64,000 bases of DNA, from NCBI GenBank assembly GCA_014913405.1, contig GCA_014913405.1_3931.1. One strand, 5' to 3'. Position numbers and translations under genes: made by a program. Positions 38,768-47,182 of this stretch are shown one piece after another; position 1 is the stretch's first letter, and each line of letters starts with the position of its first letter. This DNA is from a phage. The notes under the pieces are model-generated. The model ran no database searches and had not been told where the DNA came from. It saw nothing but the letters and a program-made list of their open reading frames with translations.

Positions 38768-39271
38768 CTATAATTGTAGGTTGCATTCTTTACTTACCTC
38801 TTCAAGTTTAACCTCAGAGTCCTTAAGTCGTTTCTTATGAACTCTGAATCTTATTAGTGAGATGATGATACCAGCTAAAGGAACAGCATACAAGTACCAG
38901 ATATCATGTAGCTTTGCAGTAATCTGTGTAATTGTCAAATCTTGAGCTATGTAGCTGATTGCTGATACTGCTAGTAATGTTGCTAAGAAAAACACTAGTA
39001 TCATTGCAATATTCATACAACCTCTTGCATGGTACTCATGCTTAATACACTTATTCTTTTCGTCAACAACCCTGTTGTAGTCGTTTGTAAAGTCTCTGTA
39101 GAAAGCTTTCAAGTATTCTTTATTGTAGCCTTCAAAGCAACCTGTACCGTACCAATAATCACCACCAAAATGTGCTATGATACCAGTATCTCCGTTTGGT
39201 TTGGTTACTCTTAGAGAGACATGATGACCAGTCTTCTGGTAATCTATCTTATATCTTTCTTCGTAAATCAT
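38768..39271 (-). CDS. hypothetical membrane protein (two C-terminal transmembrane helices)
   Basis: hydrophobic segments MILVFFLATLLAVSAI and AVPLAGIIISLI. Confidence 0.4.
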   Translation of the reverse strand: MIYEERYKIDYQKTGHHVSLRVTKPNGDTGIIAHFGGDYWYGTGCFEGYNKEYLKAFYRDFTNDYNRVVDEKNKCIKHEYHARGCMNIAMILVFFLATLLAVSAISYIAQDLTITQITAKLHDIWYLYAVPLAGIIISLIRFRVHKKRLKDSEVKLEEVSKECNLQL

Positions 39272-41582: not shown

Positions 41583-41610
41583 AAAATAAAAAAGGCTCCC
41601 GAAGGAGCCT
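41583..41610 (-). terminator. rho-independent terminator downstream of the endolysin gene
   Basis: on the - strand: AGGCTCC-TTCG-GGAGCCT followed by TTTTTTATTTT. Confidence 0.55.
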
Positions 41611-41619
41611 ATGAAGATA

Positions 41620-42084
41620 TTACTTTGGATATACACTGTCAAGATAGATGTCAGCTTCCATTCTACGTCTGTTTTTCAGACCGTTTGAAGTGACCTTCTT
41701 ACCTTTGACTGTAACCTTGTTCCACCACTGCATAGCTTCTGCACAACCTACCTTATTACCAGCATTGTGGCGCTTGATAAATGTGGAATCCTGCATAGCT
41801 GTGATACCGATGTTGTATGTTTCACTTACAAGTGCATCGAACTCATTCTGAGTAGTTGGAACCTTGATAGCTTTGTTCACTGCTGCAACAAACTTCTCAA
41901 CATCCGCGAGAAGATACTGTTCAGCTTGTTCAGCGGTGATTTTCATTCCCATCTTAACAGGTTTTCCGTCAATACGGATTGTACCATACCCGATTGTTGG
42001 GATTCCGGCAGAGTCTTCGTAAGCCTCTAACTCCAGACCTTCGAAGAACTTAATAGCTTCTAAACCTTTTCTTGAGAGTTGCAT
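41620..42084 (-). CDS. endolysin (T4-lysozyme-like muramidase, GH24-like)
   Basis: GLELEAYEDSAGIPTIGYGT matches the phage lysozyme E...D...T(I)G(Y)G catalytic region; RBS GGAGG. Confidence 0.8.
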   Translation of the reverse strand: MQLSRKGLEAIKFFEGLELEAYEDSAGIPTIGYGTIRIDGKPVKMGMKITAEQAEQYLLADVEKFVAAVNKAIKVPTTQNEFDALVSETYNIGITAMQDSTFIKRHNAGNKVGCAEAMQWWNKVTVKGKKVTSNGLKNRRRMEADIYLDSVYPK

Positions 42085-42965
42085 TATGCCTCCCCTGCTG
42101 GGTTAACAGTAACTGTTGCAGCATTAGACGTTACAGAACCACCTGCACCAGTAACTACACAGGTGTAGCTTCCTGCATCAGCAGCGGTTGCACCTTCTTT
42201 GGTGTAAGTTGCAGTAGTTGCATCGAGGATGTCTTCCTCACCTTTCTTCCATTGGTAACCTGTCGCACCTGTTGCCACAACATTCAGCGTTAAGGTCTCA
42301 CCTTCAGTGATTTCTTGATTGGTTGGCTGTTGAGTGATAACTGGTAAAGCTTTCACAGTAACGGTTGCAGGGTTAGAAGTGACAGAACCACCTGCACCTG
42401 TTACAACGCAAGTGTATGAACCAGCATCAGAAGGTTCTACAGACTGTTTTGTGTAGGTTGCAGATGTGGCGCTAGTGATATCCTCACCATCCTTTTTCCA
42501 TTGATATCCAGTGGCATTAGTTGCAATAACACTTAGGGTAAGTGTACCACCTTCATTTACTGTTTGATTGGTTGGTTGCTGAGTGATTGATGGTGGCTTG
42601 ATAGCGTCCTTCAACTTAGCATTCAACATTGAGAATGGTTTAACTCTTGCCAGCCATTCACAATAAACTGTATCAACGTCTTTACCATTGATAATTGCAT
42701 ATTGTAAGTCCATGAAGAAGTCAGAAGTTCTCATTTGAGCACCAACACTGTAAAGCAACTCATCACTAAATGGAACTTTGTAGTCTGGTTTATAGTCAAA
42801 CTTCTCAACTTCTGCAATATCAGCTTCAGGCCAATACGAGCTATAGGTAAGTGGTAAAATAGCCTCTTGATATGTTCTAAAATCATATCTCTTACCAGCC
42901 TTTACGTTTGCAATGAAGCCCTTCACAAACTCTTTGAAGTCTGGGTAAGTCTTTGCTTTAATCAT
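42084..42965 (-). CDS. protein with two tandem Ig-like domains
   Basis: two near-identical ~80-aa repeats (ITQQPTNQ...GYQWKK...DAGSYTCVVTGAGGSVTSN.ATVTV); N-terminal domain is paralogous to the upstream ORF. Confidence 0.5.
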   Translation of the reverse strand: MIKAKTYPDFKEFVKGFIANVKAGKRYDFRTYQEAILPLTYSSYWPEADIAEVEKFDYKPDYKVPFSDELLYSVGAQMRTSDFFMDLQYAIINGKDVDTVYCEWLARVKPFSMLNAKLKDAIKPPSITQQPTNQTVNEGGTLTLSVIATNATGYQWKKDGEDITSATSATYTKQSVEPSDAGSYTCVVTGAGGSVTSNPATVTVKALPVITQQPTNQEITEGETLTLNVVATGATGYQWKKGEEDILDATTATYTKEGATAADAGSYTCVVTGAGGSVTSNAATVTVNPAGEA

Positions 42966-43333
42966 TTCTTTTCAGCCTCTAAATGTGCGTTTAGTCTAAA
43001 ATAACCTTTGTGATTCGGAGATACATCACCAACGACAATACCTTTAACCTTATATCCTTTACCAATTACATACTGGATATCCATAAGGAATCTTCCAAGA
43101 CCAACAATATGGAACATTGGGTATAATAGACTCTCAGAGTCTGGAATATTGATTTCAGGTTTGTAGGTACGCTGTTCGCTTGTTGGTGTAATATCTTCTT
43201 CAGGCCATTTACTGAGTCTCCATGTCAAAGGTGTTGGGATAACATCATTAAGGTTGTACCTTTCACCATTTTGCACGGAATTGATATAGGATTGTAGGAA
43301 GCAATAAAAGTCTTTTGCACTCTTAGCTTTCAT
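42962..43333 (-). CDS. hypothetical protein, paralog of the N-terminal domain of the Ig-like protein
   Basis: KAKSAKDFYCFLQSYINSVQNGERYNL parallels KAKTYPDFKEFVKGFIANVKAGKRYDF. Confidence 0.45.
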   Translation of the reverse strand: MKAKSAKDFYCFLQSYINSVQNGERYNLNDVIPTPLTWRLSKWPEEDITPTSEQRTYKPEINIPDSESLLYPMFHIVGLGRFLMDIQYVIGKGYKVKGIVVGDVSPNHKGYFRLNAHLEAEKK

Positions 43334-43380
43334 TAAATATCCTTATAAATAGTTAAAGGGGCATAAGCCCCTATTCACAC

Positions 43381-45043: not shown

Positions 45044-46459
45044 ATGAGCGAATTATTTAAACATGCGCACCTTCATGCAGGTCGAACTGAAAATGGTGCT
45101 GTAAACCATACTTCATCAATGTCTGCTCTTGTAGACTTTTACAAAGCTGCTGGTTCAAGCCGTAGCAACGTAGAAATCTTACCAGACCTGTTCTACAAAG
45201 CTTTGCGTGAGGATGTTGATGTTGCAGTTCGTATTTTGCTTCATATGCGAGATGTACGAGAAGGTATGGGTGAGCGTAAAGCCTTCAGAACTGTTTTGCT
45301 TCAAGCAATTGAAGATAAAGTTTTAGAGCCTACACAGGTTCTTCGCATTATGGATAAGATTGCAGAACTTGGTCGTTTTGATGACTTCAAAATCTTCGTG
45401 GGTACTTGTTTCGAGACAGATGCCTTCAAACATTTAGAAGCAGCATTACTAGACCCTGCAACAGCAGGTTTGGCGGCTAAGTGGTTACCACGAGTAAAAC
45501 CACGTCATAAGCAGTTTGTAAAACGTTTCTGCAAGTTTGCCAACTTGAGTGAGAAAGAGTACCGCACACTGTTGTCTGCACTATCTGATACAGTTGAGCA
45601 AAAAATCTCTGCTAATGAGTTTGGTAAGATTGACTACAGTAAGATTCCTTCACTTGCTGCTGCACGTTACCAAAAACTGTTTAACCGTAAAGATGGAGAG
45701 CGTTACAAAGCTTACATCGAGTCCTTATCAAAAGGTGAGACTAAGATTAGCGCTGGTGCTGTTTACCCATACGATGTGATTAAATCTGTCAAGCATGGTA
45801 ATGCAGATGTTGCTAATGAGCAGTGGAAAGCACTACCAAACTGGATGGCAGAAGGTGAAAACATCTTGTGTATGTCTGATGTATCAAGTTCAATGTCTTG
45901 GGTGAATTTTGGCTCCATTACTGCTCTGGATATTGGTGTATCACTTGCCTTGTATGTAGCAGAACGCAATACAGGTTGCTTTAAGAATGAGTTGATGGTT
46001 TATTCAACAAACCCTCACTTCATCGAACTGAGTGGTGATTTACGAAACCGTCATCGTCAGGTGATGCGACACGTTGAATATGGCTCAACTAACTTACAAG
46101 CAGCTTTTGACCGCATTCTTGAGACAGGCAAAAGAAACAACTTGACTCAGAAAGATATGCCAAGTAAGCTTATCATCTTCTCCGATATGGAGTTTAATCA
46201 GGTTGATGGGGCTAACGGTCGTACAAACTTTGAAGCAATTCAGAGTAAGTACAAAAAAGCTGGATATGAGATGCCACAACTGGTATTCTGGTACTTAGCA
46301 AACCGTAATGGTACTTGCGAAGTATCTGTTAAGGATAACGGTGTAGCAATGGTATCAGGGTTCTCTCCAGCCACTTTAAAAGCTCTGCTTGGTGGTGAGA
46401 AGTTTGACCCAATCAGTGTAATGCTCAAAGCAGTAATGATTGACCGTTATATCTGGTAA
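45044..46459 (+). CDS. vWA-like protein with MIDAS motif (DxSxS)
   Basis: ILCMSDVSSSMSW matches the MIDAS DxSxS signature; 471 aa. Confidence 0.4.
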   Translation: MSELFKHAHLHAGRTENGAVNHTSSMSALVDFYKAAGSSRSNVEILPDLFYKALREDVDVAVRILLHMRDVREGMGERKAFRTVLLQAIEDKVLEPTQVLRIMDKIAELGRFDDFKIFVGTCFETDAFKHLEAALLDPATAGLAAKWLPRVKPRHKQFVKRFCKFANLSEKEYRTLLSALSDTVEQKISANEFGKIDYSKIPSLAAARYQKLFNRKDGERYKAYIESLSKGETKISAGAVYPYDVIKSVKHGNADVANEQWKALPNWMAEGENILCMSDVSSSMSWVNFGSITALDIGVSLALYVAERNTGCFKNELMVYSTNPHFIELSGDLRNRHRQVMRHVEYGSTNLQAAFDRILETGKRNNLTQKDMPSKLIIFSDMEFNQVDGANGRTNFEAIQSKYKKAGYEMPQLVFWYLANRNGTCEVSVKDNGVAMVSGFSPATLKALLGGEKFDPISVMLKAVMIDRYIW

Positions 46460-46623: not shown

Positions 46624-46700
46624 CTCTGTTTAGCTCAGCTTGGTAGAGCGTTCCGTTTGGGGCGGTAAGGCCGGAGGTTCAAGTCCTCCAACAGAGACCA
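46624..46700 (+). tRNA. tRNA-Pro (anticodon TGG)
   Basis: hand-folded cloverleaf: 7-bp acceptor stem, T-loop GGTTCAAGTCC, anticodon loop TTTGGGG, CCA encoded. Confidence 0.65.
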
Positions 46701-46707
46701 AATTAAT

Positions 46708-46785
46708 GTTCCAGTGGACAAAATGGTAAAGTCACCACTCTTTCAAAGTGGATATTTGAGGGTTCAAATCCCTTCTGGAACGCCA
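46708..46785 (+). tRNA. tRNA-Glu (anticodon TTC)
   Basis: acceptor GTTCCAG/CTGGAAC, anticodon arm CCACT-CTTTCAA-AGTGG, T-loop TTCAAAT. Confidence 0.65.
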
Positions 46786-46877
46786 GTTTTGACAGAAGAC
46801 CAATTACAGCAAACTTAATCTTATTCATCTGAAGGTAAATCGGACAAAGAAGAGATTTGGTCTGGTCATTAAGAATT

Positions 46878-46953
46878 GCGGGTATAGAGAAAGGGCGTCT
46901 CACATGTCTCATTAGCATGGTATCGGCAGGTTCGACTCCTGCACCCGCCTCCA
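46878..46953 (+). tRNA. tRNA-Met (anticodon CAT)
   Basis: T-loop GGTTCGACTCC, anticodon loop CTCATTA. Confidence 0.55.
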
Positions 46954-47036
46954 AATTTACAGAAGACCGTTTACAGCAATATTTATTAAATTTTTAGCGG
47001 AAAAATTGAAAGATACGGTCTGGTAATACTAAACAT

Positions 47037-47113
47037 GGTTAGGAAGCACATAAGGTATGTGCGGTCGCCTGTTAAGCGAATGGCACAGGGTTCGAATCCC
47101 TGACTAACCGCCA
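47037..47113 (+). tRNA. tRNA-Asn (anticodon GTT)
   Basis: T-loop GGTTCGAATCC, anticodon loop CTGTTAA. Confidence 0.6.
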
Positions 47114-47182
47114 AATTTAGGAGAGAAGCGATTGCTCACCGATTTGTAAGGTGCAAGTCCTTAGCCTGAATAGAAATCAAAT

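Follow-up and report, generated by a model that had tools for sequence, protein, structure and literature searches.

A Hex-Dec-type capsid decoration gene and its Ig-less paralogue upstream of the endolysin in a Felixounavirus

Directly upstream of its endolysin gene, the phage genome analysed here (a stretch of 64,000 nucleotides from contig GCA_014913405.1_3931.1, hereafter called the window) carries a 293-aa gene that very probably encodes the Hex-Dec protein of the Ounavirinae, a Hoc-like capsid decoration protein. A protein of this type, the position of its gene outside the structural module and the variation between one and four Ig domains are already known, the latter two having been published in 2025; that work also supplies the comparison of Ig repeat copy number across related phages which the original prediction had proposed as a check. 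The only under-described part of the locus lies just upstream of the Hex-Dec gene, where the capsid-binding domain (CapBD) is encoded once more in a small version lacking Ig domains. As judged from its sequence conservation, this 123-aa ORF is a real, selected gene that copies the capsid-binding domain alone.

A three-gene unit with the endolysin at its end

The window belongs to a Felixounavirus, i.e. a Felix O1-like myophage, with DNA identities of 94-97% to Felixounaviruses and of ~97% to Escherichia typing phage 1. Three ORFs are arranged head to tail on its minus strand, in the order 123-aa ORF, 293-aa ORF and 154-aa endolysin. The features considered here are the following.

43358..43371, minus strand: GC-rich, terminator-like hairpin (GGGGCttatGCCCC) with a T-rich tract after it, separating the ORF38 homologue from the 123-aa ORF
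42962..43333, minus strand: 123-aa Ig-less CapBD paralogue, with an AAGGA ribosome-binding site upstream and a TGA stop overlapping the Hex-Dec ATG
42084-42965, minus strand: Hex-Dec, 293-aa ORF (phrog_3995)
42597..42965, minus strand: Hex-Dec CapBD, residues 1-123, nearly identical to residues 1-125 of 9ncf_S and 9c2d_S, with Arg79 and Arg107 present
42348..42596, minus strand: Hex-Dec Ig-like domain 1, residues 124-206 (repeat detection, Pfam, AlphaFold2, Foldseek, blastn)
42099..42347, minus strand: Hex-Dec Ig-like domain 2, residues 207-289 (repeat detection, Pfam, AlphaFold2, Foldseek, blastn)
42084..42098, minus strand: Hex-Dec C-terminus AGEA and TAA stop, carrying the endolysin ribosome-binding site GGGGAGG and the one-base TAATG overlap
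41620..42084, minus strand: endolysin, 154 aa, T4-lysozyme type (PF00959, phrog_7), last gene of the unit, orthologue of Bas63 g123
41593..41610, minus strand: intrinsic terminator, AGGCTCCttcgGGAGCCT followed by TTTTTTATTTT, directly after the endolysin stop and annotated at the same place in wV8
57977..59083, plus strand: major capsid protein, 368 aa, probable binding partner of Hex-Dec, nearly identical to 9ncf_A of Bas63 (E = 1.2e-245), with Asp221 conserved

The stop of the 123-aa ORF and the start of the 293-aa ORF overlap as ATGA, while the 293-aa stop and the endolysin start share a single base (TAATG), which confirms the stop/start overlap noticed in the original prediction. The hairpin at 43358..43371 is regarded as a terminator-like upstream boundary of the unit; the wV8 annotation gives the same element as a rho-independent terminator, it is also among the listed Felix O1 terminators, and a simple terminator scan of the sequence missed it. 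CapBD-only paralogue, Hex-Dec and endolysin form a compact unit between terminator hairpins, with coupling by the ATGA and TAATG overlaps. A search for a late promoter with CTATTTATAAGG, located just upstream of the 123-aa ORF, yielded ten matches compared to 8.2 expected by chance, i.e. no enrichment, and a scan for sigma-70 promoters remained at chance level. A programmed frameshift fusing the paralogue to Hex-Dec was considered and rejected, as a slippery heptamer is absent at the ATGA junction; such a fusion is also disfavoured by the overlap of 8 nt in SUSP1 compared to 4 nt in the window, which means that the relation between the two frames is not conserved.

The window's Hex-Dec gene thus lies outside the morphogenesis module and directly upstream of the endolysin, a location that had at first been called unexpected for a virion protein. 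It turned out to be the rule: the order Hex-Dec then endolysin is shared by six lineages (Felixounavirus, Mooglevirus, Suspvirus, Kolesnikvirus, a Hafnia phage and an uncultured lineage) and, in the subfamily Ounavirinae, is both fixed and ancestral. A non-essential addition to an already finished capsid would need only late production and hence no place in the morphogenesis module. In Kolesnikvirus phiEa21-4 (gp38) and Hafnia phage SarahDanielle (gp85), proteins with a homologous CapBD (30-36% identity) are likewise encoded immediately upstream of the endolysin. Unlike in the window, their display module has been swapped (for a single Big_2 domain in phiEa21-4) and no CapBD-only paralogue is present; phiEa21-4 additionally has a terminator between the gp38 gene and the endolysin.

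The 293-aa protein as a capsid decoration protein

The 293-aa protein is the orthologue of Bas63 Hex-Dec (bas63_0124, 9NCF chain S), Sf14 gp20 (9C2D/9C3A chain S) and Felix O1 gp36, and none of the results speaks against this assignment. Residues 1-292 match phrog_3995 (E = 5e-169), and phmmer retrieves 9ncf_S of Bas63 (E = 2.7e-244) and 9c2d_S of Sf14 (E = 3.4e-190), with near-identity over residues ~1-125. Cryo-EM of Bas63 and Sf14 has located a Hex-Dec/gp20 monomer at the centre of each hexamer next to a pentamer, at the facet edges of a T=9 capsid. The structure papers describe an N-terminal CapBD followed by one to four Ig domains and place the gene over 10 kb away from the structural module. 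Sf14 gp20 is anchored by salt bridges that its Arg79 and Arg107 make with Asp221 of the major capsid protein; both arginines are present in the window's Hex-Dec, and the partner aspartate is present in the window's major capsid protein. Mass spectrometry of CsCl-purified Felix O1 virions identified gp36 (31.6 kDa) from 14 peptides (44% coverage), and transcription of Felix O1 ORF36 and ORF37 is maximal late, at 60 min. The initial remark that Ig-like domains of phages usually decorate the virion surface was right and applies to this protein, whose orthologues were resolved on the capsid (9NCF_S, 9C2D_S) or found in virions (gp36). Capsid binding by the protein of this phage is probable by analogy with these orthologue structures and the Felix O1 virion data. 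AlphaFold2 modelled the CapBD part of Hex-Dec poorly (pLDDT 30-50) and lends only weak support; the same failure on this capsid-binding domain was noted by the Sf14 authors.

In the orthologues, one Hex-Dec monomer has been shown to dock at the centre of each pentamer-adjacent hexamer (60 sites) after assembly of the T=9 head, using its N-terminal CapBD of ~120 aa. Docking involves the salt bridges from Arg79 and Arg107 to capsid Asp221, and the Ig-like domains extend away from the shell as a flexible fibre. If T4 Hoc is a guide, this fibre may aid adhesion to surfaces, mucus or cells, or may affect aggregation. The sole hint on the role of the Ig fibre in Ounavirinae is a score for Bas63 g124 that indicates greater essentiality on E. 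coli S17-1.

In most database records, relatives of this protein are listed as tail proteins, be it a major tail subunit or a tail fibre (GenBank labels 'tail protein', 'HK97 major tail subunit' and 'putative tail protein'), and the 293-aa protein itself matches phrog_158, phrog_853 and phrog_3575, all of which are labelled 'major tail protein'. These matches are, however, confined to the Ig region (residues 96-207) and reveal no tail-tube domain. The label arose because Ig domains also occur at the C-termini of siphophage tail-tube proteins. As two independent cryo-EM structures (9NCF, 9C2D) resolve the N-terminal domain at the centres of capsid hexamers, a function in the tail is already refuted and we give it practically no credence. 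Correcting the annotation from tail protein to capsid decoration protein is the main practical value of the analysis, and the gene in the window can now be named with confidence.

The C-terminal part of the protein consists of two Ig-like domains, as had been proposed from the sequence. Pfam assigns Ig_3 (2.3e-23) and I-set (1.8e-17), each to two stretches. The structure prediction suggested as a check was run and gave an Ig fold over residues 125-290 with pLDDT >90, for which the top Foldseek matches are the tandem Ig structures of Robo2 Ig2-3, titin and MuSK (E ~ 1e-15). The predicted direct DNA repeat of ~250 bp is likewise real and comprises positions 42103-42345 and 42352-42594 (243 nt, spacing 249 nt, identity 71%); aligned by blastn, the two copies match far beyond chance (E = 3e-33). 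Tandem Repeats Finder did not report the pair because the copies are only ~71% identical, while a separate repeat search did detect it. At the protein level, the two repeats are not nearly identical as first stated, since they share 60 of 83 residues (72%). Third codon positions hold 43 of the 76 nucleotide differences, which marks the duplication as old and both copies as selected. The number of Ig domains is two in the window and Felix O1, three in Sf14 and wV8 and four in Bas63. The first Ig domain of the window protein is the orthologue of Ig1 in Bas63, wV8 and Felix O1 (89-90% identity), and the second that of the relatives' last Ig domain (98% to Bas63 Ig4, 99% to wV8 Ig3), so that gain and loss concern the internal domains. 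Apart from this number, the window protein resembles Bas63 Hex-Dec, Sf14 gp20 and Felix O1 gp36 throughout, with a near-identical CapBD, Arg79/Arg107, I-set Ig repeats of an 83-aa period and a gene located between the 123-aa paralogue and the endolysin. For phage engineering, Hex-Dec represents a non-essential scaffold for capsid display with a naturally variable number of Ig modules, in which the first and last domains are conserved and the internal ones come and go.

T4 Hoc works in a similar way: it, too, is a dispensable monomer that sits in the centre of hexamers by means of a small capsid-binding domain and carries an outward string of Ig-like domains. The domain order is reversed, as the CapBD is C-terminal in Hoc and N-terminal in Hex-Dec. 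According to the structure authors, the Hex-Dec CapBD is larger, topologically distinct, pseudo-C2 symmetric and of minimal sequence similarity to that of Hoc; unlike Hoc, Hex-Dec binds only a subset of hexamers. Among the PDB sequence matches listed for the 293-aa protein, none is a Hoc chain, and its matches to 'Hoc-like' PHROGs (phrog_2973, phrog_4069) cover residues 121-291, i.e. the Ig region only. The window protein hence works like Hoc but is not a member of the Hoc family. A further similarity concerns T5 pb10 (5LXK, 8ZVI), whose Ig domain matches window residues 215-289 (E ~ 1e-10). pb10 differs from Hex-Dec in having one Ig domain and an unrelated capsid-binding domain and in occupying all 120 hexamers of a T=13 capsid.

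The Ig-less paralogue of the capsid-binding domain

The 123-aa ORF corresponds to Felix O1 ORF37, Bas63 bas63_0125 (g125), Sf14 gp21 and SUSP1 agp126. It matches phrog_4463 over its full length (1-123/123, E = 4.8e-79), a family of 51 cluster representatives, nearly all of 118-124 aa, with a few shorter fragments. BLASTP aligns it to the Hex-Dec N-terminus with 37% identity over 101 aa (E = 6e-16), hhalign to the Hex-Dec CapBD with a probability of 98.7% (E = 2.8e-16, 117 columns) and phmmer to 9ncf_S (1.4e-11). The original claim of paralogy therefore stands, while the proposed extent of ~190 aa does not: the homologous region spans ~120 aa, the non-Ig part of the 293-aa protein being only ~124 aa long. 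The AlphaFold2 model of the paralogue is poor (pLDDT 56), and 9c2d_S and 9ncf_S are its only credible Foldseek matches in the PDB (TM 0.51-0.54).

The gene is conserved in Felixounavirus, Mooglevirus and Suspvirus, and an uncultured lineage contains the same triad with overlapping stops at a paralogue identity of only 48%. Its dN/dS is 0.13-0.18, and 61 of 123 positions are invariant across 22 diverse paralogues. Non-synonymous change is nevertheless 5-10 times faster than in the CapBD; relative to Bas63, dN amounts to 0.089 for the paralogue versus 0.007 for the CapBD. The position of Arg79 is occupied by Gly in every paralogue aligned, so that the anchoring arginine is missing there. In the paralogues of cultured lineages, position 107 holds Gln or Asn, with His as the next residue; in the divergent metagenomic paralogue P0175 it is Arg, as read by eye. 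A scan of viral contigs with the two most divergent stand-alone family members returned no matches, and another look-up placed one of them on its contig.

The paralogue is a pseudogene in a minority of relatives; in phages mio and Z31, one and the same deletion of 229 nt has disrupted it. Of 253 records, 19 show a best paralogue match below 60% identity, and the five listed among these 19 match only the Hex-Dec domain. In a knock-down screen of SUSP1, the paralogue scored 'Not Fit'; preprints on HIDEN-SEQ and transposon mutagenesis contain no Felixounavirus data. The protein is absent from the virion protein list of Felix O1, for which mass spectrometry detected proteins down to 9.7 kDa, as well as from the structural gene products of Sf14. 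The term 'gp21' is not mentioned in the Sf14 paper, and neither structure paper (Bas63, Sf14) discusses the paralogue. Bas63 'g123', the reported trigger of the Ec67 retron, was considered as a candidate for the paralogue and rejected, since g123 is the endolysin and g125 the paralogue in the Bas63 annotation.

Possible roles of the paralogue

Why should a phage keep a capsid-binding domain that has nothing to display? We suggest, with low confidence, that the paralogue is a duplicated CapBD without display module, which is made late together with Hex-Dec and kept by selection. Most likely, though again at low confidence, its partners would still be capsid hexamers or Hex-Dec, but the loss of both anchoring arginines means that the mode of interaction would differ. 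If it binds capsids or regulates Hex-Dec, this would help to explain how a monomer discriminates between the two hexamer types of a T=9 capsid, a modest and specialist question.

An intracellular function outside the virion is a possibility we hold tentatively, with the odds somewhat against it. As a chaperone or timer, the paralogue could prevent Hex-Dec from docking onto procapsids before they expand, or it could have gained an unrelated function after duplication. Its absence from the published virion lists, the faster yet constrained non-synonymous evolution and the loss of the anchor arginines are all consistent with such a role, and the ATGA coupling suggests near-stoichiometric co-production with Hex-Dec. 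Against an obligatory role, mio keeps a full-length Hex-Dec frame despite its pseudogenised paralogue, and Kolesnikvirus and the Hafnia phage have Hex-Dec orthologues without any paralogue; the paralogue can therefore not be an obligatory chaperone.

Rather doubtful is the proposal that the paralogue is a functional partner of Hex-Dec which escaped notice in two cryo-EM studies, be it a plug present in few copies on the 20 three-fold hexamers or a co-translated regulator of where and when Hex-Dec docks. If true, hexamer-type-specific decoration of T=9 capsids would be a two-paralogue system. We consider it unlikely that the paralogue is specifically a second capsid protein, i.e. an Ig-less plug on the 20 true 3-fold hexamers or a competitor of Hex-Dec that sets the density of fibres. 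In favour of this, it shares its domain with the CapBD, is transcribed late together with Hex-Dec and coupled to it in translation, is under purifying selection and has been retained over deep divergence, and exactly the two residues that bind Asp221 are changed. According to the Sf14 paper, the 3-fold hexamers stay free of Hex-Dec owing to a different Asp221 geometry. Icosahedral averaging would blur twenty monomers placed on a 3-fold axis, and mass spectrometry at a 25% coverage cut-off might easily miss them. Against a capsid plug, neither cryo-EM study reports density on the 3-fold hexamers left over by Hex-Dec, the published virion lists lack the protein, and it is dispensable in nature (mio, Z31) and in the SUSP1 knock-down screen.

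That the 123-aa ORF is a decaying duplicate without function appears very improbable: loss by deletion in a subclade, the 'Not Fit' score in SUSP1 and the lack of a database function would fit, but the low dN/dS and the invariant half of its positions speak against decay, as do a frame, ribosome-binding site and stop/start overlap that are intact in three genera and in the 48%-identical lineage.

A capsid decoration gene next to the endolysin

The minus strand of the window carries three genes arranged head to tail, in the order 123-aa ORF, 293-aa ORF, lysozyme:

42962-43333, minus strand: 123-aa paralogue (ORF call)
42084-42965, minus strand: Hex-Dec, 293 aa (ORF call)
41620-42084, minus strand: lysozyme (endolysin), 154 aa (PF00959, E = 4.5e-41; phrog_7)

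The stop of the 123-aa ORF overlaps the start of the 293-aa ORF in an ATGA, and the anticipated overlap between the Hex-Dec stop and the endolysin start was found as a TAATG junction. Directly upstream of the 123-aa ORF is a GC-rich hairpin ending in a T-rich stretch, a canonical intrinsic terminator (41610-41593) follows the lysozyme gene, and the annotation of phage wV8 places terminators at both corresponding sites. The overlaps and flanking terminators mark the three genes as a single compact unit with translational coupling.

The window belongs to a Felixounavirus. Alignment of the 2-kb region gave 94-97% identity with Escherichia typing phage 1, Felix O1 and wV8, and with about 220 further records. 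Over its full length, the 293-aa protein matches 9ncf_S of Bas63 ('Immunoglobulin-like domain protein', 460 aa; E = 2.7e-244) as well as 9c2d_S and 9c3a of Sf14 ('tail protein', 372 aa; E = 3.4e-190). Previous studies described this Hoc-like decoration protein as Hex-Dec in Bas63 (PMC12609058, Sci Adv 2025) and gp20 in Sf14 (PMC11821841, Commun Biol 2025); it is bound only to facet-edge hexamers next to pentamers and projects one to four Ig-like domains outwards, which are too mobile for resolution (PMC12609058, PMC11821841). The domain at the N terminus that binds the capsid (CapBD) is anchored in Sf14 by Arg79 and Arg107 to Asp221 of three capsid-protein subunits (PMC11821841). We found both R79 and R107 in the window's 293-aa protein and D221 in its major capsid protein (57977-59083), which is almost identical to 9ncf_A of Bas63 (E = 1.2e-245). 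In Felix O1, whose record lists ORF35 as lysin, ORF36 as Ig protein and ORF37 as the 123-aa paralogue, gp36 ('tail protein', 31.6 kDa, the same size as the window protein) was identified from 14 peptides (44% coverage) in CsCl-purified virions, and transcription of ORF36 and ORF37 peaks late, at 60 min, with tail-fibre and baseplate genes. On this evidence, the 293-aa gene encodes the Hoc-like protein that decorates hexamers in Ounavirinae and whose structure has been solved. The original observation holds with two quantitative corrections, and the interpretation given in the original prediction was largely right but is not new, with both the location outside the head module and the variation in Ig copy number already published.

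Most records carry the label 'tail protein', an annotation artefact: matches to tail-protein PHROGs are confined to the Ig region. Among the hosts in the PhageMaP analysis of Bas63, g124 (Hex-Dec) scored as more essential on E. coli S17-1 than elsewhere; its authors speculate on adherence.

Why should a decoration gene reside beside a lysis gene? The site had been called unexpected, but the arrangement turned out to be ancestral and fixed rather than a quirk of the window genome: Hex-Dec lies directly upstream of the endolysin in Felix O1, wV8, Bas63, Sf14 (Mooglevirus), SUSP1 (Suspvirus), phiEa21-4 (Kolesnikvirus), a Hafnia phage and, in a divergent relative, on a metagenomic scaffold of 87 kb. 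We infer that for a dispensable protein docking on finished capsids, late expression would be enough and co-assembly would not be needed; nothing would then bind its gene to the head-gene cluster. The soc gene of phage T4 likewise lies apart from the T4 head genes.

Ig-like repeats and their number in relatives

The Ig region starts at about residue 124 of Hex-Dec and gives matches to Ig_3 (2.3e-23), Ig_2 (3.7e-19) and I-set (1.8e-17) in Pfam, each over two stretches. An AlphaFold2 model reached a pLDDT of at least 90 over residues 125-290 with all-beta secondary structure, and in the PDB it most resembles tandemly arranged Ig modules, those from Robo2, MALT1, titin and MuSK (E as low as 2e-15; TM 0.66 against Robo2 Ig2-3). 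All three lines of evidence bear out the proposed Ig-like nature, and a non-Ig fold was not seen. The expected direct DNA repeat was recovered by repeat search as two 243-nt copies (42103-42345 and 42352-42594) at a spacing of 249 nt (83 codons) and with 71% identity (blastn of copy against copy, E = 3e-33). At protein level, the two domains had been described as nearly identical, whereas Ig1 and Ig2 share only 60 of 83 residues (72%). Their nucleotide sequences differ at 76 positions, 43 of them third codon positions, and dN/dS is 0.17; these comparisons indicate a real and old repeat with purifying selection on both copies.

The Hex-Dec gene spans four discrete lengths in relatives, about 633, 882-885, 1134 and 1385 nt, corresponding to one, two, three and four Ig domains. 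Ig1 shares 89-90% identity with the first Ig domain in Bas63, wV8 and Felix O1, and Ig2 shares 98-99% with the last one (Ig4 in Bas63, Ig3 in wV8). The variation hence arises as internal domains are gained or lost, presumably when the 249-nt repeats recombine unequally. Since the range of one to four Ig domains is already in print (PMC12609058), this comparison is a confirmation with a small refinement. The outgroup phage phiEa21-4 carries the same CapBD but a single Big_2 domain in place of Ig, showing that the display module is swappable.

The 123-aa paralogue

The proposed paralogy between the N-terminal region of Hex-Dec and the 123-aa ORF proved real, but extends over about 120 aa instead of about 190 aa. 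The similarity was detected by BLASTP (37% identity over 101 residues, E = 6e-16) and by profile-profile comparison (probability 98.7%, E = 2.8e-16, 117 columns, residues 2-120 of the 293-aa protein). At DNA level, the duplication has left its longest trace in a 21-nt stretch (42813-42833 in CapBD, 43187-43207 in the paralogue; 86% identical) encoding the shared WPE(A/E)DI motif.

Along its full length, the paralogue fits phrog_4463 (E = 4.8e-79). This type comprises 51 cluster representatives, nearly all of 118-124 aa with a few shorter fragments, and adjoins Hex-Dec in Felixounavirus, Mooglevirus and Suspvirus; dN/dS is 0.13 against Bas63 and 0.18 against Sf14. The triad is also kept in an uncultured divergent Ounavirinae-like phage (locus L009, 4001-5726; ENA ERZ28599557, scaffold_93, 87 kb), with a paralogue of 122 aa (about 48% identical to cultured paralogues), a two-Ig Hex-Dec of 298 aa and a lysozyme of 154 aa, again with overlapping stops and starts. 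The 123-aa paralogue is thus a real gene. When 1.84 billion representatives were searched exhaustively with an HMM, only 12 clusters with a CapBD-type domain emerged, all Ounavirinae-type in appearance, most with a C-terminal display module and a few stand-alone. Kolesnikvirus and the Hafnia phage have a single domain copy, and the duplication is hence younger than the subfamily. One distant stand-alone family member, protein P0179 (153 aa), bears a Lys/Ser-rich low-complexity tail in place of the Ig domain, which may serve for display or anchoring in another way.

The paralogue is not discussed as a duplicate in either structure paper (PMC12609058 for Bas63, PMC11821841 for Sf14), and the latter does not mention gp21; it is the only part of the locus that the literature searched leaves uncovered and a small, genuine loose end. 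What might it do? We put first a role inside the cell, or a transient one, that is linked to Hex-Dec or to the capsid hexamers; a low-copy capsid plug ranks second and a decaying duplicate third.

A simple second decoration protein is disfavoured on several grounds. All paralogues have Gly at position 79, and those of the cultured lineages have Gln or Asn at 107, although we read an Arg at 107 in the divergent metagenomic paralogue P0175; lacking Arg at both positions, cultured paralogues cannot form the Arg-Asp221 salt bridges. The paralogue is missing from the 17 Felix O1 virion proteins, though a 9.7-kDa protein was detected there, and from the Sf14 structural gene products listed (PMC11821841), and the 3-fold hexamers were reported empty in both the Bas63 and Sf14 reconstructions (PMC12609058, PMC11821841). 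Its knock-down was 'Not Fit' in the SUSP1 CRISPRi-ART screen, as were those of Hex-Dec and the endolysin, the last of which suggests that the screen has false negatives. It is a pseudogene in phages mio (Denmark; locus L004, 2296-2510) and Z31 (China; locus L002, 2796-3005), where an identical 229-nt internal deletion, corresponding to window 43262 to 43033, accompanies loss of the start codon, with the 3' end and its Hex-Dec ribosome-binding site kept. Finally, the best paralogue match falls below 60% identity in 19 of 253 records, among which the five listed match only the Hex-Dec domain. The Ig region of Z31 is broken as well and annotated as two CDS.

Further genes of the window

No holin gene adjoins the endolysin (41620-42084), a remark also made for Felix O1. 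In Bas63, this endolysin has as its orthologue g123, which according to the Bas63 record is the endolysin and not the paralogue; the PhageMaP preprint reports g123 as toxic only with the Ec67 retron in cells and as a candidate defence trigger. Downstream of the endolysin, a 167-aa ORF (38768-39271, minus strand) with a hydrophobic C-terminal half is, by size and position, the likely orthologue of bas63_0116 and may be part of the lysis machinery; the PhageMaP authors connect Bas63 gp116 with lysis and disruption of the membrane, and scored it as conditionally essential on S17-1. A 471-aa ORF (45044-46459, plus strand), annotated as vWFA/DUF2828 'RNA-binding' and Ro-like, is the orthologue of SUSP1 agp131 and of Bas63 gp130, which was reported to counter the ppl defence system. 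It lies directly upstream of a tRNA array (46624-51835, plus strand) with 26 tRNA genes (ARAGORN), typical of Felixounaviruses. A 308-aa ORF antisense within the major capsid protein gene (58085-59011, minus strand) is almost certainly a mechanical artefact of ORF listing.
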